DNA of 64,000 bases. Source: Candidatus Harrisonbacteria bacterium RIFCSPLOWO2_01_FULL_44_18. Its GTDB lineage: Bacteria > Patescibacteriota > Minisyncoccia > UBA6257 > WO2-44-18. Position numbers and translations under genes: made by a program. Location of the stretch: assembly GCA_001817915.1 (NCBI GenBank), contig MHJJ01000014.1, positions 3,695 to 67,694 of the forward strand. The letters are read 5' to 3'. Of this stretch, positions 5,972-60,319 are shown piece by piece; within the stretch, counting starts at the first letter, position 1; every line of letters starts with the position of its first letter. The notes under the pieces were generated by a model, which did no database searches, had not been told where the DNA came from, and worked only from the letters and a program-made list of their open reading frames with translations.

Positions 5972-7420
5972 ATGGATTTAATGGAAAAAATAGTTAATTT
6001 GTGCAAGCGTCGGGGTTTTATTTTTCCCGGCTCGGAAATTTACGGCGGTCTTGCCAACTCTTGGGATTACGGCCCACTTGGAGTTGAATTAAAAAATAAT
6101 ATCAAAAATGAATGGTGGAAAAGATTTGTGCGTCAGCGGACCGATATTGTCGGCATTGACGCCGCTTTAATGATGAATCCGAAAGTATGGGAAGCAAGCG
6201 GCCATCTCAAAGAATTTTCTGATCCGTTGGTGGAGTGCAAGAGTTGCCATAAGAGATTTAGGGTTGATGAATATGGAGACGAAGGAATGAAGGCGAAAAA
6301 AGAAAACCTTCCTGGTTTTTCTAACAAATCTCACCTTCTTAGTGTTAGAAGCAAAAATGATATTGCTTGTAAAAATTGTGGTTTAAAAGGAACACTTACT
6401 GATTTTCGTATGTTTAATTTAATGTTTAAAACTTTCCTCGGTCCTTCGGAAGACAGCGCCAGCGTCGTATATCTGCGTCCGGAAACGGCGCAGGCGATGT
6501 TTGTGGATTTTAAGCAGGTTTTGGAAACTGTCCGCAAGCGCGTGCCTTTCGGCATAGCTCAAGTCGGCAAAGCGTTTCGCAATGAGATAACGCCCGGCAA
6601 TTTTATTTTCCGTACGCGGGAATTTGAGCAAATGGAAATAGAATATTTTATCCGTCCGCCAGCCGGCGAAGAGTGGAAAAAGTATTTTGATATGTGGCTG
6701 GAAGAGATGAAAAATTGGTTAGTAAATTTAGGTGTTGATTTGAAGAAAATCCATTTTCGGGAAATCCCCGAGGAAGAACGAGCCCATTATTCAAAGCGCA
6801 CCGTGGACATTGACTATGAATTTCCGTTTGGCCAAAGCGAACTTTATGGTTTGGCGTATCGCGGCGATTTTGATTTGAAGAATCATATGGAAAAAAGCGG
6901 TCAGGATTTGCGATATACCGACCCGGATACCGGCGAAAAATTTGTGCCGCATGTTATTGAGCCGACTTGGGGAGTAGATAGATCAGTTTTAGTCGCGATG
7001 CTTGAGGCGTATCGCGAAGAGATAGTCGCGGACTCACGCGGACTGGACGCAGACTCGCGCGGAAAGAGAAGTAATGAGGAAGAAACGCGGGTAGTTATGA
7101 AGTTTCCGAAATGGCTCGCGCCGATAAAAGTCGCGATACTTCCGTTGTCCAAAAAGGAAGAGTTAATAAAAATCGCCAAGCCGCTATACGAACAGTTGGC
7201 TAAAAAATTCGTTTGCGAATATGACGAAACGCAGAGTATCGGCAGACGTTATCGCCGCCAAGACGAAATCGGCACGCCCTATTGCGTTACCGTTGATTTT
7301 GAAACAATAAATGATAAAGCGGTAACTATTCGCGATCGCGATACCATGAAACAGGAAAGAGTCGAGATTTCCGCTCTATCTAAAGTCTTAGAACAATCTA
7401 TTGGTTTCGGGAATCAATAG
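5972..7420 (+). CDS. glyQS: glycine--tRNA ligase (dimeric class II type)
   Basis: 482 aa. KRRGFIFPGSEIYGG..WDYGPLG and FRNEITPGNFIFRTREFEQMEIEYF are GlyRS signatures. Contains the insert ADSRGLDADSRGK. Confidence 0.92.
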   Translation: MDLMEKIVNLCKRRGFIFPGSEIYGGLANSWDYGPLGVELKNNIKNEWWKRFVRQRTDIVGIDAALMMNPKVWEASGHLKEFSDPLVECKSCHKRFRVDEYGDEGMKAKKENLPGFSNKSHLLSVRSKNDIACKNCGLKGTLTDFRMFNLMFKTFLGPSEDSASVVYLRPETAQAMFVDFKQVLETVRKRVPFGIAQVGKAFRNEITPGNFIFRTREFEQMEIEYFIRPPAGEEWKKYFDMWLEEMKNWLVNLGVDLKKIHFREIPEEERAHYSKRTVDIDYEFPFGQSELYGLAYRGDFDLKNHMEKSGQDLRYTDPDTGEKFVPHVIEPTWGVDRSVLVAMLEAYREEIVADSRGLDADSRGKRSNEEETRVVMKFPKWLAPIKVAILPLSKKEELIKIAKPLYEQLAKKFVCEYDETQSIGRRYRRQDEIGTPYCVTVDFETINDKAVTIRDRDTMKQERVEISALSKVLEQSIGFGNQ

Positions 7421-12129: not shown

Positions 12130-13155
12130 ATGATACTTATTGATTCTCATACCCATATCCAATTTCCGGTTTATGATAATGATCGGGAGGCGGTTATTGA
12201 ACGCGCGAGAAACGCGGGGGTTTACCCCCACACCAAACGAGCATTGGCGTTAGAAGAAAATGATGCTCGTTATGGTGTGGGGGTAAAAATGATTTGCGTC
12301 GGCACTCAAGCATCAACTTCTGAATCGGCAATTAAGCTCGCGGAAAAATATCCAGAGGATGTTTGGGCGACAATCGGCTACCATCCCAATCATGTTGTGC
12401 CAGCGCAACATGCGCAGACTTTGCGGACTGGACGCAGACTTGCGCAGACAAATTGGTATCATGATCAGAAGGAGCAGAAATCGGCAAATCCGCCGCGATT
12501 TAATATTGAAGAACTGCGCAGGCTTGCTCAGCATCCGAAAGTCGTGGCGATCGGGGAGTGCGGTTTGGATTACTACCGACTAGCCGCTAGCGATTTGCCA
12601 CTAGCCACTAGGGTTAAAGAAAAACAGAAAGAAATTTTTTTGCAGCAAGTCGAACTTGCGCAGGAATTAAATAAAGCATTGATGATCCATTGCCGGCCAT
12701 CCAAAGGCACCAACGACGCCTACGAAGATTTGCTGAAGATTTTACAGGAGATTAAATTTTCTCAGAATGTAATTATTCATTTTTATGTTGGTTCTGTTGA
12801 AATGGCACGAAAATTTTTAGATGCCGGATTTTACCCCCACACCAAACGAGCATTATCGGGGGGCGTCAATGGCGCGAATGCTCGTTATGGTGCGGGGGTT
12901 TATTTTACCTTCGGTGGCGTGATTACATTTTCACGCGACTATGACGAAATTATAAAATACATTCCTCTGGATCGAATTCTTCTGGAAACCGACGCGCCCT
13001 ATGTCGCGCCGGAACCGTATCGCGGCCGCCGCAACGAACCGGCATACATCGTGGAAACCGCTAAAAAACTAGCGGAAGTTAAAAATGTAAGCTTTGAAAA
13101 AGTGGCTGAAATAACTACCAAAACTGCTGGACAGATTTTTAAGTTGCCATTATAA
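12130..13155 (+). CDS. tatD: TatD family metal-dependent hydrolase/DNase with three repeat-derived inserts
   Basis: Begins LIDSHTHIQF and contains GECGLDY, ALMIHCR and ETDAPY motifs. At 341 aa it is larger than a typical TatD, owing to inserts at 12221-12287, 12411-12449 and 12830-12902. Confidence 0.88.
   Translation: MILIDSHTHIQFPVYDNDREAVIERARNAGVYPHTKRALALEENDARYGVGVKMICVGTQASTSESAIKLAEKYPEDVWATIGYHPNHVVPAQHAQTLRTGRRLAQTNWYHDQKEQKSANPPRFNIEELRRLAQHPKVVAIGECGLDYYRLAASDLPLATRVKEKQKEIFLQQVELAQELNKALMIHCRPSKGTNDAYEDLLKILQEIKFSQNVIIHFYVGSVEMARKFLDAGFYPHTKRALSGGVNGANARYGAGVYFTFGGVITFSRDYDEIIKYIPLDRILLETDAPYVAPEPYRGRRNEPAYIVETAKKLAEVKNVSFEKVAEITTKTAGQIFKLPL
12221..12287. repeat. palindromic element family A, copy 1 (in frame in tatD)
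   Basis: Arms tttacccccacaccaaacgagcat / atgctcgttatggtgtgggggtaaa. Encodes YPHTKRALALEENDARYGVGV. Confidence 0.9.
12830..12902. repeat. palindromic element family A, copy 2 (in frame in tatD)
   Basis: Arms tttacccccacaccaaacgagcat / atgctcgttatggtgcgggggttta. Encodes YPHTKRALSGGVNGANARYGAGV. Confidence 0.9.
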
Positions 13156-14832: not shown

Positions 14833-17385
14833 ATGCTGAAGTATAATTTTCGTAAAATAGAAAAAAAGTGGCAAGCCGTCTGGAAGCGCAATAAGTATAA
14901 GGTCTGGCGCGCCGCGGATTTTTCTAAAAATCAAAACCCAAAAGCTAAAAGCTATGTATTGGATATGTTTCCCTATCCCTCCGGCGAAGGACTGCATGTC
15001 GGCCATGTTGAGGGTTATACCGCTTCGGATATCTACGCGCGTTTTTTAAGAATGAACGGCCGTAATGTTTTGCATCCGATGGGATGGGACGCCTTTGGTT
15101 TACCTGCGGAAAATTACGCGATTAAGACAAAAACTCATCCCAGCTTGGTGGTAAAAAAGAATGTAAGGCGATTTAAAGCCCAATTAGACAGCTTGGGATT
15201 CAGCTACGATTGGCAAAGAGAAATTAATACCACCGACCCCGGATATTATAAATGGACGCAGTGGATTTTTCTGCAGATGTTCAAAAACGGCCTTGCTTAT
15301 GAAGCAGAGATGCCGGTTAATTGGTGTCCCTCTTGTAAAACCGTATTAGCCAATGAAGAGGTGATTGACGGCCATTGCGAACGTTGTGACAGCCTCGCAG
15401 AAAGAAAAAGTTTGAAACAATGGATTTTAAAAATTACCGATTACGCCGAGCGTCTGCTGAAGGATCTAGACGGGTTGGATTGGCCGGAGCGAGTAAAAGA
15501 AATGCAAAGAAATTGGATTGGCCGGTCAGAGGGGGTGATCATTAAGTTTCAAGTTTCAAGTTTAAAGTTTCCAATCGAAGTTTTTACGACTCGGCCGGAT
15601 ACTTTGGCCGGCGCCACTTATCTGGTTTTAGCGCCGGAACATCCGCTTATCAAAGACTTACAGCGCAAAATTAGGAATCCTAACGAGGTGACGCGTTATG
15701 TTGAGCAGGCGAGCCATAAATCAGAGCGCGAGCGACTGGCGGAAGTAAAAGAGAAAACCGGAGTCGAGCTTAAGGGCATTAAAGCCGTTAATCCTTTGAC
15801 CAACGAACAAATTCCGATTTGGGTCGCTGATTATGTTTTGGTCCATTATGGCACGGGCGCGATTATGGCAGTGCCGGCCCATGATCAAAGAGACTTTGAA
15901 TTTGCTCAGAAATTTGAGTTGCCGATAAAGATTGTTATTTGCCCGAATTATCCGGAACCCGTTTGCCCGATTTTAGAAAAAGCTTATGAAGGCGATGGAT
16001 ATTTGGTTGGTTCGGGCGAATTTGACGGCCTGCCTAATAACGAAGCTAAAAAAACGATTCTTGAATCGTTGATAAAAAAAGACTTGGCGAAAAAGACTGT
16101 TAATTACAAATTGCGGGATTGGGTTTTTTCCCGTCAGCGTTATTGGGGCGAGCCGATACCTTTGGTTTTTTGTAAAAATTGTAAAAAACAAGTGGAGAAT
16201 TTTAAATCTCAAAACCAAAATTATTCTTTTGATAAATTTAGTTTGGGAGAATTGTTAAATCCCGGTTGGACGGTCATTCCTGATTCAGAATTACCGGTCA
16301 AGTTGCCCAATGTTAAAAATTATCAGCCAACCGGCAAGGCCGAGTCGCCTTTGGCTGGCATTGAAAAATGGACCAAGACGAGTTGTCCCAGATGCGGCGG
16401 GTTAGCTACGCGAGAAACTAATACTATGCCGCAATGGGCGGGGTCTAATTGGTATTATTTGCGATATTTAGATCCCAAGAATAAAGAAGAATTAGTTGAT
16501 CACGACAAAGAAAAATACTGGATGGGAGTGGACTTATACATCGGTGGCGTAGAGCACGCGGTGTTGCATTTGTTGTACGCCCGCTTTTGGCATAAGTTTT
16601 TGTATGATATCGGCATAGTTTCCACCAAAGAACCTTTTGGCAAATTAATTAATCAAGGTTTAATTTTGGGGCCGGATGGCCAGAAAATGTCAAAATCGCG
16701 CGGCAATGTGGCAAATCCCGACGAAATAGTTTCTAAATTTGGCGCGGATTCTTTGCGGCTTTATGAAATGTTTATGGGGCCGTTGGAGGAGGCAAAACCG
16801 TGGGATTCCCGCGGGATCGTGGGAATGCACCGTTTTTTACAAAGAACGTGGAAGTTATTCACGAAACCGGGAATTGAAAAAAATCCGCGTAAATCTGCTT
16901 CTACCGACGCAGAATCCGCGTCAATCCGCGTAGCGAAGCTGTTACACAAAACTATCAAGAAAGTTACCGAAGATGTCAAAAATTTCCGGTTTAATACCGC
17001 TATCAGCGCGCTGATGATTTTAGTTAACGAAATGGAAAAGAATCCTCAATTACTAATTACTAATTACCAATTACTAATAAAATTGTTGTTTCCTTTCGCG
17101 CCGCATTTAGCTCAAGAACTTTGGCAAAAACTAGGAAATAAGAGTTTATTGGATTACGAGCCTTGGCCGGTCTGGGATGAAAAATTAATCCAAGAAGAAG
17201 AGTTTGAGTTAATTATTCAAATCAACGGCAAAATGCGGGGTAAAATTATGACTCAAAAGGGAATTGTCGAAGAAGACGCGAAAAAACTTGCATTCAGCCA
17301 AAATGTTATTAAGAAATGGATCGGCGGCAAAAAAATCAAAAAAACTATTTTCGTGAAAGATAGGTTGATAAATTTTATTGTTTGA
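14833..17385 (+). CDS. leuS: leucine--tRNA ligase
   Basis: FPYPSGEGLHVGH and KMSKSRGN motifs plus a CP1 editing region. Start moved to MLKYNFRKIEKKW. Inserts at 16884-16933 and 17049-17076. Confidence 0.93.
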   Translation: MLKYNFRKIEKKWQAVWKRNKYKVWRAADFSKNQNPKAKSYVLDMFPYPSGEGLHVGHVEGYTASDIYARFLRMNGRNVLHPMGWDAFGLPAENYAIKTKTHPSLVVKKNVRRFKAQLDSLGFSYDWQREINTTDPGYYKWTQWIFLQMFKNGLAYEAEMPVNWCPSCKTVLANEEVIDGHCERCDSLAERKSLKQWILKITDYAERLLKDLDGLDWPERVKEMQRNWIGRSEGVIIKFQVSSLKFPIEVFTTRPDTLAGATYLVLAPEHPLIKDLQRKIRNPNEVTRYVEQASHKSERERLAEVKEKTGVELKGIKAVNPLTNEQIPIWVADYVLVHYGTGAIMAVPAHDQRDFEFAQKFELPIKIVICPNYPEPVCPILEKAYEGDGYLVGSGEFDGLPNNEAKKTILESLIKKDLAKKTVNYKLRDWVFSRQRYWGEPIPLVFCKNCKKQVENFKSQNQNYSFDKFSLGELLNPGWTVIPDSELPVKLPNVKNYQPTGKAESPLAGIEKWTKTSCPRCGGLATRETNTMPQWAGSNWYYLRYLDPKNKEELVDHDKEKYWMGVDLYIGGVEHAVLHLLYARFWHKFLYDIGIVSTKEPFGKLINQGLILGPDGQKMSKSRGNVANPDEIVSKFGADSLRLYEMFMGPLEEAKPWDSRGIVGMHRFLQRTWKLFTKPGIEKNPRKSASTDAESASIRVAKLLHKTIKKVTEDVKNFRFNTAISALMILVNEMEKNPQLLITNYQLLIKLLFPFAPHLAQELWQKLGNKSLLDYEPWPVWDEKLIQEEEFELIIQINGKMRGKIMTQKGIVEEDAKKLAFSQNVIKKWIGGKKIKKTIFVKDRLINFIV
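17049..17076. repeat. heptanucleotide tandem repeat AATTACY x4 inside leuS
   Basis: aattactaattactaattaccaattact encodes LLITNYQLLI. Confidence 0.85.
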
Positions 17386-32146: not shown

Positions 32147-32147
32147 A

Positions 32148-40387: not shown

Positions 40388-40444
40388 TATAAGCAGAAAT
40401 ACGCGGATTTATGCAAAAATTAGAAGCGGATACACGCAGAAAAT

Positions 40445-48751: not shown

Positions 48752-48810
48752 TATTATCCGCCTAAATGGCGGATTTTTGTTTTTGAATAAACAAGTTATA
48801 ATTAAACTTA

Positions 48811-49110: not shown

Positions 49111-49196
49111 ACTCCACCAATATGACTAATCAAGCACCAATATGCCAATATGCGAATTCGTATATTCGCGCTATATTCGTATATTAGTGAAGTTTT
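49111..49196. repeat. stop-to-start junction repeat (actccaccaatat family), copy 1
   Basis: Shares actccaccaatat..ctaatcaagcaccaatat...attcgtatattcgcgctatattcg with 63817-63893. Confidence 0.85.
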
Positions 49197-50672: not shown

Positions 50673-50688
50673 TTAAATTTGTAAAAAT

Positions 50689-51219
50689 ATGACAAACAAA
50701 GTTATTCAATTTTCAATTCAAGCCAGCGGGATTATTGGGAATTTTTTAGATGAAAATCTTCTCTGGCTGCGGATCGTTTCGTTTATTATTTCCGGCCTGC
50801 TTTTGTGGGGAATTATTTATTGTATTTTAGGCAGCAGTTATCTTAAAACTAAAACCGATCAGTGGATGGATTTTTTGGGAGTGGGAGACGTAGGCCGCCG
50901 CAGGCAGTTGCGCGGATGGAGACAAATTAAAAAGCGATTGAAAACCGACGAAATGACAAATTGGAAATTAGCGATAGCAGAAGCGGATAAAATTCTAGAC
51001 GAGATTTTTAAAATGAGCGGTCTGCGCGGGGAAACGACGGAAGATCGTTTTAAGCAAGTCGCGCCAACCCAACTTTCTAACATTGAAGAGATTATGCAAG
51101 CTCATAAATTGCGCGATCGGGTTATGCGCGAGCCGGATTTTGTTATTAGTCAGGAGGAAGCTGGAGCCGCCATTGCTATTTATCAAAAAGCTTTCAAGAA
51201 ACTTGGTTTGCTTGACTAA
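50689..51219 (+). CDS. hypothetical membrane protein
   Basis: 176 aa with one TM segment (WLRIVSFIISGLLLWGIIYCIL). Confidence 0.55.
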   Translation: MTNKVIQFSIQASGIIGNFLDENLLWLRIVSFIISGLLLWGIIYCILGSSYLKTKTDQWMDFLGVGDVGRRRQLRGWRQIKKRLKTDEMTNWKLAIAEADKILDEIFKMSGLRGETTEDRFKQVAPTQLSNIEEIMQAHKLRDRVMREPDFVISQEEAGAAIAIYQKAFKKLGLLD

Positions 51220-51296
51220 TATATAATAATTCCGCTAAAATTTCTAAAGTTCCTTAGTTCCTTGCGTCAAAGATTTATATAAAGGGAGGTGGCAGG

Positions 51297-51557
51297 ATGG
51301 CCGAGGACAGACCAGTGAATGTTGGTGTTACTATTATGGTTTTTTGTCAATTTAAGGGAAAACTTGCTCGCGCCTTTGTGTCCGAGGAAACGCATACGAG
51401 ATTAAGAAAGATAATTAATTATGGCCGGTTTGACGGCCGGAAAGAATGGAGTTTGGTAGGGATTTTGCGAAGGGCATTTACGTTATATGGCATTTCTGAA
51501 AACGCGATCAAAAAATATCTTGATGAGCTTGAAAGGAAGATAAGAGACGATAAATGA
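51297..51557 (+). CDS. hypothetical small protein
   Basis: 86 aa with a strong RBS, AAGGGAGGTGGCAGG-ATG. A terminator hairpin (cacccTAACgggtg + T-run) follows at about 51588-51610. Confidence 0.5.
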   Translation: MAEDRPVNVGVTIMVFCQFKGKLARAFVSEETHTRLRKIINYGRFDGRKEWSLVGILRRAFTLYGISENAIKKYLDELERKIRDDK

Positions 51558-51623
51558 GCGATGAACAGGGCCCAGCCGTAATTTCAAAACACCCTAACGG
51601 GTGCTTTTTGTTTCAGCAGTCTG

Positions 51624-51698
51624 CGCGGGCGGCCGGATTTGAACCGGTGACCTTCCGCGTGACAGGCGGACGCTCTAACCAGACTGAGCTACGCCCGC
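51624..51698 (-). tRNA. tRNA-Asp(GUC)
   Basis: GCGGGCG-TA-GCTC-AGTCTGGTTA-GAGC-G-TCCGC-CTGTCAC-GCGGA-AGGTC-ACCGG-TTCAAAT-CCGGC-CGCCCGC-G. Flanked by an 11-bp inverted repeat. Confidence 0.88.
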
Positions 51699-51728
51699 GC
51701 AGATTGCTGGAATACCTTTGTTAATATA

Positions 51729-53078
51729 CTATTTTTTAATTTGTTTTACAATTTTTTTGAATTTTCTTCCGCGATCTTTATAATCTTTGAACATGTCAAA
51801 ACTGGCGGCGCCGGGAGAAAAGACGATAGTAACTGGCAATCGGTAATCGGCAATTAGAGACTTCGCAGTTTTATATGCAATTTTAATAGCAGATTCTAAA
51901 TTGCCGCCTTTTCTAATTACTATTTTCTGGTTACTAATTACTGAGGCTATTTTATTTTTATTTTCGCCAAAAAGCATAACAGCTTTGACATTGCAGGCTT
52001 TTTTAATGGCATCGGCAAGAGGTTTATAATTGAGATTTTTATCTTTTCCGCCGGCAATCAAAATGGTTAATTGGTTTGTTGATTGGCTGGTTATTTGGTT
52101 ATTAGAAAAGGAAAGAACGGCGGCGGCGGAAGTTTGCGGATTGGTGCTCGCGGAATCATTGTAAAAATCTATTCTAGAATTCATTCCAACGTTCTTAAGA
52201 ACGTTGGAATGAATTTTTATACCGCGGACGAATTCCAGCCGATGCTCTATTCCTTTAAATTCCGCGATTGTTTTATCAATGATATGGTCGGGACAGTCCA
52301 GATTTTGGGCGATTGCTTTTGCCATCGCGGCGTTTTTTTGATTATGATCGCCCGGGATTTGCAGACCGGGTAGGCCAATGTTTTCCGGAGAAACGGGGAT
52401 TTTTCGAGCAGGCGATTGATCGGCAATCCATTTTGAAAACTTGTTATCAGAGGAATAAAATATCTTATCTTGTTTTGAATTCTGAAAACGGCCGATGTTA
52501 GCTTTGGCATTAATATATTCTTTGAAATTTTTGTGACTATCTAGGTGATCGGGGAAAATATCTAAAATCGCCGCCAATCGCGGAGATTTCGCGAGGTCTT
52601 GGAGTTGAAAACTAGAGAGTTCCAGAATAACCATTGTTCGAGAATCAATTTTTGGCAATATTTCCAGCGCCGACTTGCCGATATTTCCAGCCAAGGCCGC
52701 CTTAAATCCGGAGTTTTTGAGAATTTGATAAAGCAATGTGGCAGTTGTGCCCTTCCCCTTGGTGCCCGTTATTCCGATGACGATTTGTCCGTGATGTCCG
52801 TGTTCAGTCCGCGTGGTTCCGTGAAGTTGTTCAAAGAACAACTTAGTGGCGCTGGAGAAACGAATCCCTTTTTTGATGGCGCGCTGAATCTGCGGTAAAT
52901 TGTACGGCACTCCCGGCGAGCGAAAAACAACATCAAACTTGTCGAGATTTTTTAAATAATTTTTGTCCCGTTTTTGATCCAGAATTTCAATTTTTGCTCC
53001 GCCATAAATCGGCGAGCGTTTCAAGAATTTGAGCGTTGATTTTCCTTCTATTCCAAAGCCCAGAATCGCGATCTTCAT
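51729..53078 (-). CDS. murD: UDP-N-acetylmuramoylalanine--D-glutamate ligase
   Basis: 449 aa with the Mur ligase P-loop GITGTKGKGTTATLL. Contains a 36-bp perfect palindrome in frame. Confidence 0.88.
   Translation of the reverse strand: MKIAILGFGIEGKSTLKFLKRSPIYGGAKIEILDQKRDKNYLKNLDKFDVVFRSPGVPYNLPQIQRAIKKGIRFSSATKLFFEQLHGTTRTEHGHHGQIVIGITGTKGKGTTATLLYQILKNSGFKAALAGNIGKSALEILPKIDSRTMVILELSSFQLQDLAKSPRLAAILDIFPDHLDSHKNFKEYINAKANIGRFQNSKQDKIFYSSDNKFSKWIADQSPARKIPVSPENIGLPGLQIPGDHNQKNAAMAKAIAQNLDCPDHIIDKTIAEFKGIEHRLEFVRGIKIHSNVLKNVGMNSRIDFYNDSASTNPQTSAAAVLSFSNNQITSQSTNQLTILIAGGKDKNLNYKPLADAIKKACNVKAVMLFGENKNKIASVISNQKIVIRKGGNLESAIKIAYKTAKSLIADYRLPVTIVFSPGAASFDMFKDYKDRGRKFKKIVKQIKK
52179..52214. 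repeat. 36-bp perfect palindrome inside murD
   Basis: attcattccaacgttctt|aagaacgttggaatgaat is 12 codons and encodes IHSNVLKNVGMN. A diverged copy lies at about 54665-54700. Confidence 0.95.
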
Positions 53079-53131
53079 ATTTACACAATATACAAAAAAC
53101 TCGCCCGTGGCGAGTTAGAGATAGCTAGAAT

Positions 53132-53566
53132 CTAGATAATTCTTTTTACTAAAACCACCGGATGTTTTGTTCCGGGAACGGGTTTTATTTCTACGCCTCT
53201 TTTGCTTGAACAATGAGTCATGTGCCTGTTTCCGATATATATTGCCACGTGGCCAATCAGCAATTCCCGATTGTCTAGAATAACTGTCCGAGGTCTGTGT
53301 CCTTTGAAAAACAATAAATCGCCGATTTCCCAAAGTTCGGGATTGCCAACCGCGACTTCTTTTCCGCAAAGTGCCTGAAGATTGGAACTGCGCGCCAGAT
53401 TGATTCCGAATTTTCCAAATATATATTTTACGAACAAGGAGCAATCGAAATAATTTGGCGTATCCTCGTTTTTCGCGCCGTATTTATAAGGCCTACCTAA
53501 CAGCTTAACTGATTCCAGGATTATTTTTTTCTGGATATTTCGTTTCGGCTTTTCGCTGGGCGTCAC
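53132..53566 (-). CDS. NlpC/P60 (C40) family peptidoglycan peptidase
   Basis: 144 aa. The nucleophile context is YFDCSLFVKYIF, followed by IGHVAIYIG..H. Confidence 0.8.
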   Translation of the reverse strand: MTPSEKPKRNIQKKIILESVKLLGRPYKYGAKNEDTPNYFDCSLFVKYIFGKFGINLARSSNLQALCGKEVAVGNPELWEIGDLLFFKGHRPRTVILDNRELLIGHVAIYIGNRHMTHCSSKRGVEIKPVPGTKHPVVLVKRII

Positions 53567-53616
53567 CGGTGCCTCTTTAAAGGGCTAATTATCATTTTAT
53601 CGAGACCCCATAAGGC

Positions 53617-53646
53617 TTGTCAATCGCAAGGATAGTTTGATATAAT
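53617..53646 (+). promoter_or_regulatory. sigma70-like promoter TTGTCA-18-TATAAT for the tRNA-fMet/Met cluster
   Basis: TTGTCAatcgcaaggatagtttgaTATAAT ends 5 nt before the tRNA 5' end. Confidence 0.6.
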
Positions 53647-53651
53647 ATTCT

Positions 53652-53723
53652 CGCGGGGTAGAGAAGTAGTATCTCGCAAGGCCCATAACCTTGAGATCGT
53701 TGGTGCAATTCCAACCCCCGCAA
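53652..53723 (+). tRNA. initiator tRNA-fMet(CAU)
   Basis: CGCGGGG...CCCCGCA-A with the C1:A72 mismatch and loop CCCATAA. The D-loop (AGTAGTA) and T-loop (TGCAATT) are atypical. Confidence 0.8.
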
Positions 53724-53742
53724 CAAAATTTTTACTTTAATT

Positions 53743-53809
53743 GCCGGCGTAGCTCAGCGGCACCCCGCACTAAAACAAGTTTAGTACGGGGCAAGGAGCG
53801 AGCCAAGAT
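53743..53809 (+). pseudogene. orphan tRNA 5' half with a hairpin inserted in the D-loop
   Basis: GCCGGCG-TA-GCTC-AGCGGCA, then hairpin ccccgcactaaa/tttagtacgggg, then CAAG-GAGC-G-AGCCA... No 3' half was found downstream. Confidence 0.45.
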
Positions 53810-53884
53810 GGCTGGGTAGCTCAGTGGTAGAGCAGGCGTTTCATAAGCGCCAGGTCGCGAGTTCGATCCTCGCCCCAGCCACCA
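53810..53884 (+). tRNA. tRNA-Met(CAU) elongator type (or Ile2, if the anticodon is modified), CCA encoded
   Basis: GGCTGGG-TA-GCTC-AGTGGTA-GAGC-A-GGCGT-TTCATAA-GCGCC-AGGTC-GCGAG-TTCGATC-CTCGC-CCCAGCC-ACCA. Confidence 0.88.
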
Positions 53885-53966
53885 AAATTTGTGATGCCCC
53901 CTTGTTTTATTGCTGTCAGTCTACTAATCTAAGTCCGTACTTTGAAAAGTCATTTTTGGAGGGAAC

Positions 53967-54317
53967 GTGGCGGAGCAATTGGTGTGGGTAGGATTTACGG
54001 CCATCCTTTTTCTTGTCGGACTTTGTGTATTGGGCGCCATTTTGTCAATTGAGAAAAAGTCAAAGCGATACGCATCTTTGGCCGCCCTTTATTTTTTTGT
54101 TTGCGGTATGGTATGCGTTTTCGCGGGATTAGTAACTGCGATGCCCTGGTTTAAATTTTTTATGATGTTGGCGGCCGGGTGTAATCTTATTTGGGGGATA
54201 GAATATGTGCGGCAATATCATAAGGAAAGTAAAAAGGCTTCGCTACCATGTCCCGAGGAAAACCGCGAAAAGCAAAAGACGAATCAGGGCGCGGAGCATT
54301 TTGATAGATACGCGTAA
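53967..54317 (+). CDS. hypothetical membrane protein
   Basis: 116 aa with a GTG start behind GGAGGG and 3 TM segments. Confidence 0.5.
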   Translation: MAEQLVWVGFTAILFLVGLCVLGAILSIEKKSKRYASLAALYFFVCGMVCVFAGLVTAMPWFKFFMMLAAGCNLIWGIEYVRQYHKESKKASLPCPEENREKQKTNQGAEHFDRYA

Positions 54318-54356
54318 GCTTGGAAAGGAGGTGGGATCATAACAGCCACGACTGCT

Positions 54357-54542
54357 ATGGCCGTTTCAGTTGCAGTGATTCTCGTTATATCTATCGCGGC
54401 AACCTTACTTTTCAGACATAGTCGCAGATTACACCTTTTTTGCGGTGTTCGGGATTTGATGTTTGCCGGTTTGTCTTTTCTGTCATTCGCGATTCATAAT
54501 TTTCACTGGCTTTGGTCTTGGGTCCCTTTATATTTTTTTTGA
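54357..54542 (+). CDS. hypothetical small membrane protein
   Basis: 61 aa with 2 TM segments. AAAGGAGGTGGG lies upstream, with a spacing of about 20 nt. Confidence 0.4.
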   Translation: MAVSVAVILVISIAATLLFRHSRRLHLFCGVRDLMFAGLSFLSFAIHNFHWLWSWVPLYFF

Positions 54543-54625
54543 TATCAGGCTTACTGCAGTTGCGTAAAGGAATGGAATCTCCACCAGTATGCGCAGTATG
54601 CAAAGAGTGCACCGACGGTAAAATT

Positions 54626-54649
54626 AATCCCCCTAATTAGGGGGATTTT
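54626..54649 (+). terminator. intrinsic terminator
   Basis: Perfect palindrome aatccccctaattagggggatt followed by a T-run. Confidence 0.75.
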
Positions 54650-54831
54650 ATAATTTTGGAAAATGACTTCGGTGTTTATTCCAATGTTCTTAAGAACTTG
54701 AGAATAACCTTTAATTTCTATATACTTCTATTTCACAATCGAGACATAGAAGTACAGCTTATAATATAAAGAAAAATAATTTATCATCAGAAGAATTCGT
54801 ATTTTCCTCCAAAAATGTTAAAATAATAAGC

Positions 54832-55977
54832 ATGGATATTCAAGATTTACGACATTCTTTTCATCACGAGATCAAAGGCGTTAAAGACGCAAAAACCCTT
54901 GAGGGGTTTAGAATAAAGTATTTAGGGCGCAAAGACGGCGAGCTTACTAAAATTTTGCGTTCACTGAAAGATTTGCCGTTGGCAAAAAAGAGAAAAATTG
55001 GTCCTGCCGCCAATAATTTGCGAAAGGAAATCGAAGTCGCTTTAGAAGCAAAACTTAAGGAGCTACAAACTACAAACTACAAACTACAAACTAGAATTGA
55101 TGTTACTATGCCCGGCAAAAAGATTCCGGTCGGGCATCTTCACCCGCTGACTTTGATGGAAAATAGAATTCGGGAAATTTTCCGCGGTTTGAATTTTTCC
55201 GTTGTTGAAGGCCCGGAGATAGAAACCGAACATTATAATTTTGACGCTTTAAATATTCCGGCTAATCATCCAGCTAGGGATATGTGGGACACCTTTTGGT
55301 TAAAACTTTCTGCCAACGGCGGAAAGTTCGCCCAACCAGATTTGCGAAGCAAATCTGGTTTAGGGCTAAAAACGCAGACTAACGCAGAAAAAATTCCGCG
55401 TGAGTCCGCGTCAAGTCCGCGTGTGTCTGCGCTGTTAAGAACTCACACCAGTCCGATGCAGATTCGTTATATGGAAACGCATCGGCCGCCGTTTCAGATA
55501 ATTGTGCCCGGACGAGTATTTCGTTATGAGGCTACTGACGCTTCCCACGAAATCAATTTTCATCAAGTTGAGGGTTTGATGGTCGGAGAAAATATCAATC
55601 TGGCTAATTTTAAATATATTATTGAGGAATTTTTCCGCCAGCTTTTCGGCGCCGGCACGCATATCCGTTTTCGCCCAAGTTATTTTCCGTTTGTCGAACC
55701 CGGTTTGGAAATAGACATTCTCCTTGACAGGAGCGCAGAAGAACGCGGACTATACGCAGACCAACGTGGAAAAAGTCTGCGTGAATCCGCGTGGTTGGAG
55801 GTGATGGGCGCGGGAATGGTGCATCCCAATGTTTTTCGAGCCGTTGGTTATGATTCCAGAAAGGTCCAGGGTTTTGCTTTCGGTTTGGGCATAGAAAGGC
55901 TGGCGATGATTAAATATAAGATCCCCGATATACGATTGTTCTACTCGGGAGACCTGCGTTTCATTAACCAGTTTTGA
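54832..55977 (+). CDS. pheS: phenylalanine--tRNA ligase alpha subunit
   Basis: 381 aa. Class II motifs include HPARDMWDTF, LLRTHTSPMQIR and FPFVEPGLEID..GAGMVHPNV. Three repeat-derived inserts. Confidence 0.93.
   Translation: MDIQDLRHSFHHEIKGVKDAKTLEGFRIKYLGRKDGELTKILRSLKDLPLAKKRKIGPAANNLRKEIEVALEAKLKELQTTNYKLQTRIDVTMPGKKIPVGHLHPLTLMENRIREIFRGLNFSVVEGPEIETEHYNFDALNIPANHPARDMWDTFWLKLSANGGKFAQPDLRSKSGLGLKTQTNAEKIPRESASSPRVSALLRTHTSPMQIRYMETHRPPFQIIVPGRVFRYEATDASHEINFHQVEGLMVGENINLANFKYIIEEFFRQLFGAGTHIRFRPSYFPFVEPGLEIDILLDRSAEERGLYADQRGKSLRESAWLEVMGAGMVHPNVFRAVGYDSRKVQGFAFGLGIERLAMIKYKIPDIRLFYSGDLRFINQF
55063..55090. repeat. heptanucleotide tandem repeat CTACAAA x4 inside pheS
   Basis: ctacaaactacaaactacaaactacaaa encodes LQTTNYKLQT. 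Confidence 0.9.
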
Positions 55978-56084
55978 TGAATGCCACGATGAATTATGAG
56001 GCACGAATTATGAATTATGCAGCATGAATTTTAGCCGAAGGCCATCCTTGATTCATAATTCCTAATTCATAATTCAACAAAACA

Positions 56085-58055
56085 ATGAAATTTTCCTACA
56101 CATTATTAAAAAAACTGGCGCCCGTTATAAAAAGCTCCGAGCAACTGATGGAAGCCTTAGCTTTTCATGCTTTTGAAGTTGAAAAAGTTGATGGCGATGT
56201 TATAGACATCGTCATTCCTGCTAATCGTTATTCTGATGCCGCCTCGCATTATGGGATGGCCGTGGTAGTGTCGGCAATTTTAGGCAAAAAAACGCCAGAA
56301 TTAAAACTGCCGGCGCTAAAGTCTAAAGCGCAAAGTTTAAACTTCAAAGTTGGCATTGATTCCAAAAAGCTTTGTCCGCGTTACAGCGGACTTTATGCCG
56401 AGATTAACAAGATTGGTAAATCTCCCGAGTGGATGCAAAAAATTTTAATTTCCTGCGGTTTGCGTCCAATTAACAACATCGTTGACGTGATGAATTATGT
56501 GATGCTGGAAATAGGACAACCATTACACGCTTTCGATTTTGACGAAATAGAAAGCGTGAAATCCAAAATCCAAAATCCAAAATCCAAAAATATTGTCGTT
56601 AGATTAGCAAAAGAAGGCGAAAAAATTGAAACAATTGATGGTGGCAAATATGACCTCGATGTAAATGATTTAGTAATAGCGGATGAAAAAGGGGCATTAG
56701 CGATTGCCGGGGTAAAAGGCGGAAAGCGCGCCGAGGTTTCTTTAAAAACTAAACGTATTATTGTTGAGGCGGCGAATTTCGATTCGGTTAGCGTTTACAA
56801 AACTTCTCGGCGGCTCAATTTATTCACTGATGCTTCGGCGCGCTTTTCTCATGGACTAGCACCCGTGTTAGTTGAAAAGGGGATTAAGAGAGCGGCTCAG
56901 CTTTTGAAAGAAGTTTGCGGCGCCAGATTGGGCGATTGGCTCGATGTGAACTATGTGAAGCCGAGTAAAACGATTATCAAGTTTGACGTGGAAAGATTTA
57001 ATAAGTTGACCGGACTTAGTTTAAGCGAAAAAGCGTGTTTGGAATATCTTAAAAAATTAGGATTTCAAGCAAGGGGCAAATTTATTGAGCCGCCGGCTGA
57101 ACGGACCGACATTTTGATTTTCGAGGATTTAGCCGAGGAAATTGTTAATCTTTATGGGTATGACCGGTTGCTTTCGGTTGTCCCGCGCGCGCTCTTGAGC
57201 CCTTCTGGAGCGGAAGATCAAATAGTTCTTAAAGATAAAATCAGAAGCATTCTAACCGGCTTTGGCTTGAGTGAAGTTTATAATTATTCTTTCATCGGAG
57301 AGCCTGATCCGAATCTACAAAATAAATTTTCATTGGTGGAGCTGGTAAATCCAATTGCCGATGATAAGAAATACCTGCGGCCCAGTTTATTTCCTCACTT
57401 GACTAGAAATATCGAAGAGAATTTTCGGTTTTACGATGAAGTAAGGATTTTTGAAATCGGTCGCGTTTTTGCGAAGGCAAGCGGCAAGAACGGTATAGCA
57501 AGCGGCATTAATGAGCAATTGAGTTTGGGGATCGCATTGGGGCTTAAAAAAGGCGCGCCATTTTTGGAGTTGAAAGGAATTGTTGAACAAATGCTCGGAC
57601 AAGCGGGCTTAGTTGATTATTTTACAAAAGAAGACGGCGAAGGTCGTTTACGGCTTGAATCCGATCATCGCACGCTCGGGTATTTAATTGCCAAAGACAA
57701 TAAAGCCCTTGCGGAAATTAATCTTGATGAATTGCTTCAATTGGTGGTCGGCGAAAAAGAATATAGGCCATTGCCGAAATATCCATCGGCGACGCGCGAT
57801 CTTTCATTTATGGTTGACGCTGAAGCGAGAGTAGCCGCGATTCAAAATATTATTGAAAATACCAGCCATTTACTCGATGACGCCGACTTATTGGATTGGT
57901 ACGAAGACCCGAAACTTGGCCCGAATAGAAAAAGTCTTACTTTTCGATTAGTTTTCCAAGCCGAAGATCGAACTTTAACCGATGAGGAAGTCGATCAAGA
58001 GTTAGGCAAAATTGTAGCCAGTTTGAAGGAGAAGTTTGATGTAGAATTAAGATAA
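56085..58055 (+). CDS. pheT: phenylalanine--tRNA ligase beta subunit (short form)
   Basis: 656 aa with B3/4, B5, core and C-terminal FDX-ACB-like regions. Directly follows pheS. Confidence 0.9.
   Translation: MKFSYTLLKKLAPVIKSSEQLMEALAFHAFEVEKVDGDVIDIVIPANRYSDAASHYGMAVVVSAILGKKTPELKLPALKSKAQSLNFKVGIDSKKLCPRYSGLYAEINKIGKSPEWMQKILISCGLRPINNIVDVMNYVMLEIGQPLHAFDFDEIESVKSKIQNPKSKNIVVRLAKEGEKIETIDGGKYDLDVNDLVIADEKGALAIAGVKGGKRAEVSLKTKRIIVEAANFDSVSVYKTSRRLNLFTDASARFSHGLAPVLVEKGIKRAAQLLKEVCGARLGDWLDVNYVKPSKTIIKFDVERFNKLTGLSLSEKACLEYLKKLGFQARGKFIEPPAERTDILIFEDLAEEIVNLYGYDRLLSVVPRALLSPSGAEDQIVLKDKIRSILTGFGLSEVYNYSFIGEPDPNLQNKFSLVELVNPIADDKKYLRPSLFPHLTRNIEENFRFYDEVRIFEIGRVFAKASGKNGIASGINEQLSLGIALGLKKGAPFLELKGIVEQMLGQAGLVDYFTKEDGEGRLRLESDHRTLGYLIAKDNKALAEINLDELLQLVVGEKEYRPLPKYPSATRDLSFMVDAEARVAAIQNIIENTSHLLDDADLLDWYEDPKLGPNRKSLTFRLVFQAEDRTLTDEEVDQELGKIVASLKEKFDVELR
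56562..56589. repeat. heptanucleotide tandem repeat TCCAAAA x4 inside pheT
   Basis: tccaaaatccaaaatccaaaatccaaaa encodes SKIQNPKSK. Confidence 0.95.
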
Positions 58056-59104
58056 TGAAAACATTACGACTAGTTTTACTTCTGGTGTCAGTTGGCATAC
58101 TGGCTTTGGCTGGGGGAGTGTTCGCGCGGTATGGCTATGAAAAGGTTTCGGTGGCGCGCGCGCAAAAGATAGTTCAAAAATCAACCGAGCGTTTGTCGGA
58201 AATTAAGTCTTTTGAATACTCGGCTAAAGCAAAAATTGAGCAAGCTGGGCCCCCGCTTCCTGGGACTTCGGCAGTAATCGCGATAGACGGCGTTTCGGAT
58301 TTTAGTAGCGCGCAGAATCCAAAAAGCCGTTCTCTCTTGACTGTAATGCCCGAAAGTTTTCAGACGACCCTTTTGCCAAAAGACGCAGTTATAAGTTTAG
58401 AAACTAGACATTTGGGGAAAATTTATTATTTGAGACTAGCAATATCACCAGAGCTACTTCCCTTCTTACCACTCCAACTTCCCAAAGATTGGATTAAAAT
58501 TGATTTCGAAGAAGCGCGAAAATCACTTTTACCAAGTTTACCGGGCGTCCCGAAGGGCGCGGAGCAGGTGCGATTGTCCGAAGAGCAAAAAGCTAAACTT
58601 AAAGAGATTATTATCAAAGCCAAGCTTTTAAAGATAACGGCGGTTTTGCCCGGCGAAAAATTGGACGACATAGACACCTACCGCTATGGATTTGTAATAG
58701 ACAAAAACGCCCTTATAGATTTTGCCTGGCAGTTAATAGCATTACAGTTAGAGCTTATGCAGCAAATACAACCAGATCAGCCGGTTGATAAAGAAGCCCT
58801 GGGAAAAGCCAATGCCGATTTTAGAAAAAAGCTGGAAGAGCAGTTAGCGCTAATTGTAATGCCTAAAGGTGAAATATGGATAAGCAAAGCTGATCTTTTG
58901 CCCCGCAAAATATCTTTAGTTTGGGAGCCGACATTTCTTGGACAGACTACACCGACCGGTAAACTGGGCATAGAATTTATCTTTAAAAGTTTTAACCAAC
59001 CCGTAGAAGTACAAATTCCTTTTCCGACGAAATCACTTGAAGAAGTTATGGGGGCGCTTTTTGGCGATTTCTTTGGAGGTATTCCAGCCCCATTAGTAAA
59101 ATAG
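58055..59104 (+). CDS. hypothetical membrane-anchored protein
   Basis: 349 aa with an N-terminal TM segment. ATGA overlap with the pheT stop. Confidence 0.6.
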   Translation: MKTLRLVLLLVSVGILALAGGVFARYGYEKVSVARAQKIVQKSTERLSEIKSFEYSAKAKIEQAGPPLPGTSAVIAIDGVSDFSSAQNPKSRSLLTVMPESFQTTLLPKDAVISLETRHLGKIYYLRLAISPELLPFLPLQLPKDWIKIDFEEARKSLLPSLPGVPKGAEQVRLSEEQKAKLKEIIIKAKLLKITAVLPGEKLDDIDTYRYGFVIDKNALIDFAWQLIALQLELMQQIQPDQPVDKEALGKANADFRKKLEEQLALIVMPKGEIWISKADLLPRKISLVWEPTFLGQTTPTGKLGIEFIFKSFNQPVEVQIPFPTKSLEEVMGALFGDFFGGIPAPLVK

Positions 59105-59157
59105 TCCATAGTTTGTAAACTAATTTTGACATAGAATTGCGACAGAGAGTTGTCGTT

Positions 59158-59216
59158 TCCCAATATCCTTGAGTTGTCATCGAGTTGCCATCTCCCAATA
59201 TCCTTGAGTTGTCATC
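59158..59216. repeat. 24-bp direct repeat x2 (tcccaatatccttgagttgtcatc), 11-bp spacer
   Basis: Copies at 59158-59181 and 59193-59216. The spacer gagttgccatc resembles the end of the repeat. Confidence 0.9.
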
Positions 59217-59251
59217 TCCCGTTATGCGCGCTATAGCGCGCATAACGGGAG
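59214..59251 (+). terminator. 38-bp perfect palindrome plus T-run (terminator-like)
   Basis: tctcccgttatgcgcgcta|tagcgcgcataacgggaga followed by tttt. A second hairpin (gccgcca/tggcggc + tttt) lies at about 59271-59294. Confidence 0.65.
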
Positions 59252-59303
59252 ATTTTAAGTAAATTAATTTAGCCGCCAATTCTGGCGGCTTTTGCGTTAA
59301 TCA

Positions 59304-59549
59304 TCATTCGCGTTCATCATCGGATTTTTCTTGTTCTTCGGGATCAATTCCAATTAGTTCAAACTTCCTTTTTTCAAGCTTTTCCAGCGCCTCAATCAAC
59401 GGCATATCCATTTGTAAAAATCCTTTTTCAATGTGCCCTGCGCAGATTTTAAGAAATCTATCAATCCATAAGGCTTCATGGAGGGCGTCTACCGCTTTTT
59501 CTTCTTCTTGCTTAAAAAATTCATCCGCTTCGCGATCTATGTTGCCCAT
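59304..59549 (-). CDS. hypothetical acidic small protein
   Basis: 81 aa. RBS GGAGGTGGCAG sits before the ATG. Confidence 0.5.
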   Translation of the reverse strand: MGNIDREADEFFKQEEEKAVDALHEALWIDRFLKICAGHIEKGFLQMDMPLIEALEKLEKRKFELIGIDPEEQEKSDDERE

Positions 59550-59688
59550 CTGCCACCTCCTTTCTATACCTATAGTCTAGTTTAATCCATTATAACTCAT
59601 AAAATCAAACGGAATTAAAATCTTGCATTATTGCGTTAATTATGTAAAATTATCACAGTTCTTTACAACCACAATTTAGAGGTCAACG

Positions 59689-59949
59689 ATGCATTTCAAA
59701 ACCGCGTGTCTGCTGGCAGTCGGCCTTATGGACGTTGTTACTTTTAGCTGGGCGATACATATTCATAGAACCGAACTCCATTCTTTCAAAGAAGATTTGT
59801 TATTCGGCGCCGCCGCGTTTTTTGCCCTGTTATTTTTCGCGATTATGTCCAGCCATAGATGTTGTAGGTCAAGGTGGAGGTCAAGCAAGAATACAGAGAA
59901 TACAATCGGCCGCGACGAGTTTTGCCGCGTGGAGAGTAAATATGGCTAA
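59689..59949 (+). CDS. hypothetical small membrane protein
   Basis: 86 aa with 2 TM segments. Confidence 0.4.
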   Translation: MHFKTACLLAVGLMDVVTFSWAIHIHRTELHSFKEDLLFGAAAFFALLFFAIMSSHRCCRSRWRSSKNTENTIGRDEFCRVESKYG

Positions 59950-60232
59950 GAGATCAGGTGGTCAAAGGCTTTGTTTGCGTTGCGGCAAAGCAAAAGTCGC
60001 TTCTTGCAGAATTACTCGTGACCTCTGTTTGGAAATTGAATTGATTTTAAGGCGAGATCCTCAGTTGCCGCAGAGAGTCAAGAGATCATTGAACGAGATA
60101 GATAAAAGATTTTATTGGACTCTTAAAAATGGTGTTTTATACCCCTCCGAGAAGCTGGCAAAAAGAGGCGAAAAACCTCACAAATTGCTTAGCGGCGGCC
60201 GCGCTTCCAAGAAAAGATCGCCAAAACACTAG
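59942..60232 (+). CDS. hypothetical basic protein with a CxxC pair
   Basis: 96 aa beginning MAKRSGGQRLCLRCGKAKVASC. Start chosen inside the longer ORF 59735-60232. Confidence 0.4.
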   Translation: MAKRSGGQRLCLRCGKAKVASCRITRDLCLEIELILRRDPQLPQRVKRSLNEIDKRFYWTLKNGVLYPSEKLAKRGEKPHKLLSGGRASKKRSPKH

Positions 60233-60319
60233 CCAGCCAAATCAGGTTGGTTTTTTATTTGTTTTTGACGATGAAATTTGCTATAATTAAATAGTCTTAA
60301 AAGAGGTCTATTTATTAAA

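Follow-up and report, generated by a model that had tools for sequence, protein, structure and literature searches.

We describe a family of phased, GC-rich DNA repeats in Candidatus Harrisonbacteria bacterium RIFCSPLOWO2_01_FULL_44_18, a groundwater member of the Patescibacteria, or Candidate Phyla Radiation (CPR), of which a stretch of 64 kb (called the window here; GC content ~44%) was analysed. Six arrays of a short repeated unit lie in the window, one between genes and five within pheS, glyQS, tatD and leuS, and each of the five genic copies adds residues in frame to a variable loop of its host protein (two loops in PheS and one each in GlyRS, TatD and LeuRS). With a probability of roughly 0.55, these sites are copies of a non-autonomous, hairpin-forming, modular "selfish" DNA repeat that resembles the repetitive extragenic palindromes (REPs) and the Rickettsia palindromic elements (RPEs). 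The kind of element is known, namely selfish palindromes carried in frame; unusual here are the modular decamer architecture and a unit that crosses phyla. This reading would extend "selfish DNA inside essential genes," so far a matter of Rickettsia and REPs, to the CPR, and it offers a possible explanation for part of the length variation and the low-complexity loops in CPR housekeeping proteins.

Phased decamer arrays in the window

The sequence-only reading had proposed a GC-rich palindromic repeat family at six sites, and all six were indeed present at the positions given and were recovered as chains of relaxed units. The arrays and their host genes, the latter identified by exact protein look-ups, are as follows.

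5972..7420, + strand: glyQS-type GlyRS host gene (OGY63073.1)
7025..7066, + strand: direct array in glyQS; four direct units at spacing 10,11,10, ~42 bp, without an inverted arm; encodes ADSRGLDADSRGK
12130..13155, + strand: tatD-family hydrolase host gene (OGY63078.1)
12411..12452, + strand: direct array in tatD; ~3.5 direct units; AQTLRTGRRLAQT
14833..17385, + strand: leuS host gene (OGY63081.1); 850 aa as called in public records
16882..16933, + strand: mixed-orientation array in leuS, in the linker before the anticodon-binding domain; units -,-,+,-,-; encodes NPRKSASTDAESASIRV
40391..40440, + strand: degenerate intergenic array; four direct units, detected only with ≤1 mismatch per unit
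54832..55977, + strand: pheS host gene (OGY63115.1); 381 aa, orthologs typically ~328 aa
55372..55432, + strand: decamer-array hairpin in pheS loop 1; two direct units (ACGCAGAC, ACGCAGAA), an A-rich centre and four inverted units (TCCGCGT three times, GTCTGCG), unit spacing 10,13,10,11,10; encodes TQTNAEKIPRESASSPRVSA
55732..55793, + strand: decamer-array hairpin in pheS loop 2; four direct units (the fourth degenerate, ACGTGGA), an AAAAA centre and two inverted units; encodes SAEERGLYADQRGKSLRESA

The intergenic array fills the spacer between the open reading frames (ORFs) at 39887-40387 and 40445-40945 and ends 4 nt 5' of an ATG. The host ORFs of the genic copies are intact, and the peptides encoded by the inserts include ADSRGLDADSR and SASSPRVSALLR. 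Independent public assemblies matched the window at 100% over 1-21344 and 29396-44957 and at 99.96% over 45101-64000; therefore, the repeat features of the window are not assembly artefacts.

Overall enrichment of the motif was rejected as a signal, and clustering alone was significant. The exact core CGCRGA/TCYGCG occurred 96 times in the window compared with 99 times in second-order Markov simulations, but clusters of at least three cores within 30 bp numbered six compared with 0.37 expected (one of the six, at 11318-11339, is a different small palindrome). Chains of relaxed units, defined as ACGCRGA with ≤1 mismatch and units spaced 9-13 bp apart, numbered seven compared with 0.73 expected (~10-fold; the maximum in 100 simulations was four) and covered all six sites plus one extra, at 9892-9930, which is probably due to chance. 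Tandem Repeats Finder independently reported period-10/11 arrays at 7027, 12426, 16913 and 55395. The phased clustering of units in the window is real.

The unit consists of the 8-mer ACGCRGAY and a variable spacer of 2-4 nt, and successive units are spaced 10, 11 (or 12) and 10 bp apart. Because the spacing alternates between 10 and 11 bp, two units together occupy 21 bp, the length of seven codons, and four occupy ~42 bp. Two modules recur: a direct one of four units (~42 bp) and a longer one (~84 bp) in which four direct units are followed by an A-rich centre, of the form ACGCGGA-AAAA-GTCYGCGT, and four inverted units. In unit layout, the copy in pheS loop 1 is 2+4, that in pheS loop 2 is 4+2, and that in leuS is mixed. 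The tatD and glyQS copies form one subfamily and have the middle spacer GAC-TGGA-CGC in common, which also occurs in a uvrB gene of another genome (L090).

Full elements fold as stacked 7-bp helices with small internal loops, far better than shuffled sequences. The fold z score was -3.6 for the RNA of the pheS loop 1 copy (-24.8 kcal/mol), -3.4 (RNA) and -4.25 (DNA) for the loop 2 copy and -2.2 for the leuS copy; for full elements elsewhere, it was -4.6 in L002, -7.0 and -6.1 in L125 and -6.1 in L102. The direct-only array of glyQS, in contrast, gave a z score of -0.04, that is, no structure. The term palindromic thus fits both copies in pheS and the full elements of other genomes (z scores from -3.4 to -7.0 for these) and in part the leuS copy, but not the glyQS and tatD copies, which are direct arrays. 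In L126, one unit now reads ACTCTGAT and pairs perfectly with ATCAGAGT, its exact complement, so that both arms have left the consensus together; the hairpin arms stay complementary even while drifting from the consensus. The middle R/Y position of each helix is often mismatched.

Protein loops and recurrence in other Patescibacteria

We compared the host proteins with orthologs and structures. Against Thermus thermophilus PheS (1b70_A), residues 159-199 of loop 1 (41 residues) stand opposite 17 residues, and loop 2 falls in a 17-residue gap. Similarly, GlyRS has an 11-residue gap against 8u2q_A at LDADSRGKRSN, and residues 91-124 of TatD (34 residues) are unaligned opposite ~5 residues in TatD/YcfH structures. 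The claim that the inserts lie in frame between conserved motifs was therefore borne out, the corresponding loops being short or different in orthologs and structures, except that LeuRS is extended by only ~5 residues in a variable linker compared with 3ziu_A. In an alignment of 119 PheS orthologs, the two pheS array sites are the two hypervariable blocks, and at these same two loops roughly every second ortholog has an insert of one kind or another. An AlphaFold2 model of PheS (71 aligned sequences; mean predicted local distance difference test score, pLDDT, 71.5) gave pLDDT values of <50 at residues 168-196 and ~56 at 300-320, with other parts of the monomer also poor in the absence of PheT. 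Inserts of this sort interfere with the alignment of CPR proteins, with gene calling (one public assembly has pheS in two pieces) and with structure prediction.

Other kinds of insert also occupy the two PheS loops. Many PheS orthologs have a CxxC...CxxC knuckle at loop 2, and others (P0009, P0100, P0109 and P0116, and P0050, P0064, P0069, P0097 and P0105) have other repeat-like peptides at the same two loops; TTNDSRQSSVVSR is found in both loops of one genome, and others are of the NEIKNQKSKIKN or NSKFEIRNSKF type. This suggests that genome-specific repeat families target the same permissive PheS loops.

According to the sequence-only reading, the idea of a repeat family would fall if there were no nucleotide-level repeat signal outside this genome; such a signal was found in many other Patescibacteria genes. 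A scan for three units, with one genome per species, also returned many chance matches or matches in GC-rich coding sequence, but arrays with 10-11-10 spacing lay inside long ORFs of Saccharibacteria, Paceibacterota, Liptonbacteria, Giovannonibacteria and unclassified Patescibacteria. Hosts identified by Pfam include an ATP synthase alpha/beta-family subunit, LeuRS (two arrays), topoisomerase I (TopA), RecG, TsaD, an RNase J-like nuclease, UvrA, UvrB (two genomes), PolX, MiaA, pyruvate phosphate dikinase (PPDK), Mfd, a Mur ligase, a methyltransferase and CheD. In UvrB, the arrays of L089 (547-602) and L090 (3527-3563) lie at the same position, directly after LLSYF[LP]xK, and belong to different subfamilies, one a 4+4 GAT-type hairpin and the other four direct GAC-type units; in LeuRS, arrays lie at three different positions in two genomes. 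The 4-unit arrays of L036, L100 and L102 are duplications of a 2-unit superunit of 21-22 bp. The string CGCGGAAGAACGCRGA is common to loop 2 of the window pheS, loop 2 of L002, loop 1 of L129 and the cheD array of an Elusimicrobia genome (L052).

Across 25 coding arrays, sense units were in codon phases 1, 2 and 3 in 21, 24 and 31 cases, respectively, and antisense units in 18, 3 and 19; the avoided antisense phase would encode hydrophobic residues together with Cys and Arg. The encoded peptides change with frame and orientation (ADSRGLD, ADxRG, TRTNADKTQ, NPRKSAS, TRTNADKTQINAE, NAEQRGTYAEPRG and NPRSSASNPRKSA). Because all codon phases and both orientations are used, the family is a repeat at the DNA level and not a protein motif, and the avoided antisense phase bears the mark of a filter acting on it at the protein level.

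These results bear on the alternative that the inserts are adaptive protein loops, that is, charged, disordered extensions rich in Ser, Arg, Lys, Ala and Asp that serve, for example, in binding tRNA or other nucleic acids, the DNA repeat being a by-product. Consistent with such a role, the inserts are hydrophilic, often basic and found in nucleic-acid enzymes, the antisense phase encoding Cys and hydrophobic residues is avoided, the two PheS loops are filled so widely, in some orthologs by the CxxC...CxxC knuckle, and amino acid identity between the window and L002 is no lower in the loop 2 insert than in the enzyme core (76% compared with 70.5%). Yet one DNA unit yields unrelated peptides in three phases and two orientations, copies also lie between genes, third-codon-position identity is higher in the insert shared by the window and L002 than in the rest of the gene (0.67 over 21 codons compared with 0.48), the AlphaFold2 model has low confidence and no fold for the inserts, and the nearest relatives function without them. 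We therefore consider adaptive loops a very improbable origin of the family.

We obtained the DNA of PheS orthologs by exact look-up and inspected it for the elements. A loop 2 element is present in the window, L002, L125 and L126, that of L002 being a 4+4 element at the equivalent position; loop 1 carries an element in the window, in L125, where it has 6+6 units and encodes 43 residues, in L128 and in L129 (four direct units). In a neighbor-joining tree of 321 well-occupied conserved PheS columns, the carriers were scattered, and the nearest relatives of the window PheS (P0002, P0003, P0027 and P0010) had plain short loops that lacked both elements. The scattered carriers and element-free nearest relatives favour recurrent gain at permissive loops.

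Proposed spread, known systems and arrays in other phyla

If the arrays are a selfish repeat, multi-unit segments would be copied and pasted between loci via a trans-acting activity or recombination, arrays would lengthen or shorten by 21-bp (two-unit) slippage, and the arms would be formed and kept complementary through intra-strand template switching, a process documented for hairpins generally (bioRxiv 10.1101/2023.04.19.537475). In the gene-dense genomes of Patescibacteria, selection would spare only copies that are in frame and free of stops, encode a hydrophilic peptide and fall where a large housekeeping enzyme has a permissive surface loop, and the inserted peptides are probably near-neutral passengers. 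The signature of ACGCRGAY at 10/11-bp spacing would make recurrent insertion, permissive loops and hairpin maintenance open to study across thousands of metagenome-assembled genomes.

Several observations weigh against a selfish repeat that moves. The neighbor-joining tree is crude, and the window and L002 share spacers at PheS loop 2, where an ancient insertion with many losses is possible; the higher third-position identity of their element is suggestive only. Presence/absence polymorphism, which the sequence-only reading had proposed as a check, was not seen for decamer arrays among near-identical assemblies or 90% protein clusters. Neither a target-site duplication (10 junctions inspected) nor a clean empty site was seen, the PheS of the closest relative being only 73% identical. 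No transposase, REP-associated tyrosine transposase (RAYT) or other candidate mobilising gene was found among the Pfam-annotated genes of the window region, and an all-versus-all BLASTP of ORFs within 3.5 kb of 55 loci revealed no recurrent gene beside the arrays. The idea that the unit is pre-adapted to coding by being open in all six frames was rejected (unused frames were open in 42% and 57% of cases compared with 53% for shuffled sequences). Finally, the conservation of an 8-mer across many phyla goes beyond the usual lineage-bound selfish element and hints at a conserved partner or function. As a candidate autonomous copy, we considered L032, in which direct and inverted arrays lie 800 bp apart, and rejected it as there is no gene between them.

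Among known systems, RPEs are palindromic repeats found in frame in many Rickettsia genes (Ogata et al. 2000, 2002, summarised in PMC10969869). Like RPEs, the decamer arrays are dispersed, in part palindromic repeats that lie in frame in unrelated housekeeping genes of a small, gene-dense genome as well as between genes, encode peptides tolerated in folded proteins and have no transposase of their own; six copies occur at unrelated loci within 64 kb (four genes and one spacer), and the genic ones do not disrupt their hosts. They differ in that RPEs are ~100-150-bp units with a family consensus peptide, whereas the decamer elements are 42-130-bp stacks of 10/11-bp units that use every frame; also unlike RPEs, their hosts are Patescibacteria, and the unit is common to intergenic arrays in many phyla. 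This comparison was made by description (PMC10969869), in which RPEs are ~150 bp long.

REPs, together with REP doublets (REPINs) and bacterial interspersed mosaic elements (BIMEs), are short hairpin repeats, mostly just 3' of genes, often inverted dimers and in a minority intragenic (PMC3733652, PMC3116915), and in these respects are like the arrays. Intragenic REPs have been reported in uvrA, uvrB, recBCD and polA or other polymerase genes (PMC3733652), a bias echoed by UvrA, UvrB, RecG, Mfd, PolX and TopA as array hosts. Unlike REPs, which have a single stem of 8-13 bp with a loop of 4-5 nt, the arrays are periodic series of 7-bp helices, and no RAYT was seen among the annotated genes of the window region. 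Membership of the GTAG/CGTC REPs, single imperfect palindromes of 20-40 bp that end in one of these tags (families as defined in PMC3733652), was rejected; the arrays lack GTAG, and CGTC is incidental where a spacer starts with C. Miniature inverted-repeat transposable elements, defined by terminal inverted repeats, a target-site duplication and a related autonomous insertion sequence, were also rejected, the arms being inverted arrays but with no target-site duplication at the 10 junctions inspected and no transposase family recurring near them, as were integron attC sites, whose RYYYAAC and GTTRRRY cores are absent; the arrays of the phage contig L172, described below, are direct-only.

Cyanobacteria carry short tandemly repeated repetitive (STRR) heptamers and small dispersed repeats (SDRs), reportedly described by Mazel in 1990 and Elhai in 2008. 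The arrays are like STRRs and SDRs in having very short tandem units, few unit sequences reused genome-wide and nested arrays; the heptamer families of the window resemble STRRs, and Nostocales also carry decamer arrays. STRRs and SDRs are described as mainly intergenic and cyanobacterial, whereas the decamer arrays have a unit of 10/11 bp and lie in frame in essential genes. An excess of heptamers is known in bacteria (PMC4692102).

Outside the Patescibacteria, we found strict 10-bp arrays with the consensus RAACGCRGAT, in which the flanking T and the AA or GA spacers had not been part of the query. The groups bearing them are Nostocales and other cyanobacteria, Chloroflexota (Anaerolineae, Caldilineae and Thermoflexales), Acidobacteriota, Nitrospirota, Planctomycetota, Treponema (Spirochaetota), Omnitrophota, Betaproteobacteria, Xanthomonadales and Alicyclobacillus, and in Bacteroidota plasmids the arrays are perfect hairpins with 28-bp stems 3' of genes. 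A BLAST search with a consensus hairpin returned two similar, unannotated intergenic hairpins in plasmids and no match in phages. The tailed-phage contig L172 (IMG/VR 3300031999_000479) carries seven arrays in 11.6 kb (2113-8383), all sense and direct-only, in the gaps between structural genes (capsid, head completion, tail completion and tail tube); each lies directly 5' of the next Shine-Dalgarno sequence and is followed by GGAAGGA and a start codon. Further viral contigs with ACGCRGAT arrays are L152, L183, L153 and L253-L257. For a three-unit period-10 pattern in viral contigs, the real core gave 15 matches in 7 contigs, and three permuted cores gave 0, 0 and 1. By a survey that rests on crude ORF calls, ~23 intergenic arrays start 0-30 nt past the stop codon of a co-oriented gene. 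Intergenic arrays in gene-sense orientation have stops in all three frames in 12 of 25 cases, and their antisense frames are open in 69 of 75.

The L172 arrays recall mycobacteriophage stoperators, which are repressor sites of 13 bp that occur singly and are confined to one cluster of phages. Both are short, asymmetric sites that keep one orientation relative to transcription and lie close to stop codons, in the short gaps between the genes of phage operons; unlike stoperators, the decamer arrays are tandem and common to many phyla.

Findings of this kind raise a second explanation, that the arrays are functional cis elements whose phased 8-mers bind a conserved DNA or RNA factor or act as an RNA-level punctuation or stability signal; the genic copies would then be functional within coding DNA, for example in transcription pausing, translation pacing or mRNA stability. 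The recurrence of ACGCRGAT with unqueried spacers in strict arrays across many phyla, the array before each Shine-Dalgarno sequence in a phage structural operon, the failure of permuted cores, the position past co-oriented stops and the distribution of stops between sense and antisense frames all point this way, as do the 11:3 ratio of sense to antisense orientation among direct-only genic arrays and a unit spacing of one helical turn. Set against these are the lack of a conserved neighbour gene, of an Rfam family (at the gathering threshold, Rfam matched only tRNAs in the window and, at 14 array-bearing loci, only tRNA, tmRNA and one cyanobacterial small RNA, all away from the arrays) and of any paper printing the arrays, a literature search for array strings and for in-frame repeats in the CPR having returned no matching description. 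Further, the motif itself is not strictly kept because the L126 arms co-vary away from it, the middle R/Y is often mismatched, direct-only arrays are unstructured, the heterogeneity of host genes and positions argues against gene-specific regulation, and the positional analysis depends on the crude ORF calls. A functional cis element is thus conceivable but doubtful in our judgement. Complementarity of the unit to 16S rRNA was considered and dropped.

In a broader and likewise tentative form, ACGCRGAY arrays would be a pan-bacterial cis element that has so far gone undescribed and has a conserved partner or role; the Patescibacteria, because they have almost no intergenic space, would have absorbed it into coding DNA as a frame-neutral, 21-bp-periodic variant. 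A candidate role is oriented punctuation after stops or between cistrons in chromosomes, plasmids and phages, and the same machinery may lie behind the in-frame heptamer repeats and conserved pheS hairpins described below. If the conservation of the 8-mer across phyla reflects a shared partner, it would point to a widespread piece of bacterial and phage nucleic-acid biology.

The arrays could also have arisen separately at each locus, from chance seeds that expanded through replication slippage and template switching, with nothing moving between loci; the many 7-bp tandem repeats of the genome would then have the same kind of origin. The ORFs of the window do contain many perfect short-period tandem repeats, two tandem repeats vary in copy number between near-identical assemblies, the 4-unit arrays of L036, L100 and L102 duplicate a 2-unit superunit, and heptamer hairpins with other units are found at 5879-5961 and 55989-56076. 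An origin of this sort leaves unexplained, however, why one 8-mer, 10-11-10 spacing and shared spacers occur at unrelated loci, genomes and phyla, and nearly all period-10 arrays of the window belong to the ACGCRGAY family; we hold it to be improbable. Overall, a dispersed selfish repeat is the reading that we prefer.

Separate hairpins and short-repeat families of the window

The palindrome at 55336-55358 had been counted by the sequence-only reading as part of the family but proved to belong to a separate element next to the array in pheS loop 1.

55304..55366, + strand: double-hairpin element in pheS loop 1; CTTTCTGCC-AAC-GGCGGAAAG, then GCCCAACCAGATTTGC-GAA-GCAAATCTGGTTTAGGGC; peptide SANGGKFAQPDLRSKSGLG

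This element has a DNA fold z score of -7.6 and the centre GCGAAGC and occurs once in the window. It is found at the same pheS site in at least two other genomes (L259 and L260), and across the three sequences 6 of 27 pairs show compensatory double changes; its nucleotide similarity between the window and L259 is far above expectation, PheS identity being only 62%. Mimicry of the tRNA-Phe anticodon by the GAA/AAA loop was considered and is unsupported, the loop being a triloop in a 16-bp stem; it was dropped because loops of the GAA/AAA type are a generic feature of stable mini-hairpins.

A mini-hairpin family, TCCGCC-NNN-GGCGGA, has 12 sites in the window (≤2 mismatches) compared with 2.9 expected, often as tandem pairs. 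Its sites, which include 5846-5875, 8019-8033, 10582-10611, 25712-25741 and 55309-55323, are found in intergenic DNA as well as in frame within the genes for MetRS, an M16 peptidase and PheS.

Perfect or near-perfect repeats with a 7-bp period also occur in ORFs of the window, often as 31 bp (4.4 copies) encoding 7-residue repeats. Sites are at 1157-1187, 12579-12611, 15544-15571, 17048-17078, 46074-46100, 46277-46306, 50187-50221, 51835-51854, 55063-55093 and 56559-56589, and the hosts are a glycosyltransferase, TatD, LeuRS (twice), LigA (twice), GatA, a MurD-like protein, PheS and PheT. The heptamer AAATCCA is common to gatA and pheT, in both of which it reads SKIQNPKSK, and AATTACY occurs at 1157, 17048 and 32748. 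Over 18.9 kb, the sole difference between the window and ENA contig k141_4135116 (L001) is one copy of CAAACTA in pheS (4.4 copies at 55063-55093 in the window compared with 3.4 at 9960-9990 in L001), a difference that frameshifts the pheS of L001, where it is called as pieces of 103 and 289 aa. At 29351-29457, a perfect AACAACT array of 15.3 copies begins in the last codons of the ORF at 26755-29373 and continues into the spacer; L252 is otherwise identical but has ~58 nt more between the BLAST segments that flank this array, where the alignment is ambiguous. Heptamers also form intergenic hairpins, AGGATTT / AAATCCT at 5879-5961, upstream of glyQS, and ATGAATT / AATTCAT at 55989-56076, between pheS and pheT, with direct units, a loop and inverted units as in the decamer elements.

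Several longer repeats lie elsewhere in the window. A 59-bp tRNA-like fragment containing GGATTCGAAC is found at 48679-48753 and, inverted and 24 kb away, at 24658-24716 (97% identity); the copy downstream of metK is part of a hairpin with 32-nt arms. Two 148-bp copies, 98% identical and each with a 46-bp unit twice, lie at 31468-31615 and 34964-35111, just upstream of the ORFs at 31613-32146 and 35109-36182 in a type IV pilus gene cluster. At 24521, a 19-bp indel, CCTATTGGCACACTACGCT, is present in the window and absent from the otherwise identical L252. A 35-bp tandem repeat followed by a perfect 40-bp palindrome (ATCTCCCGTTATGCGCGCTA / TAGCGCGCATAACGGGAGAT) lies at 59147-59253, and a long imperfect inverted repeat with 79-nt arms lies upstream of pilM at 30169-30330. 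Finally, gyrB (60320-63553, 1077 aa) contains an intein, as indicated by a match to the Intein_splicing family of Pfam.

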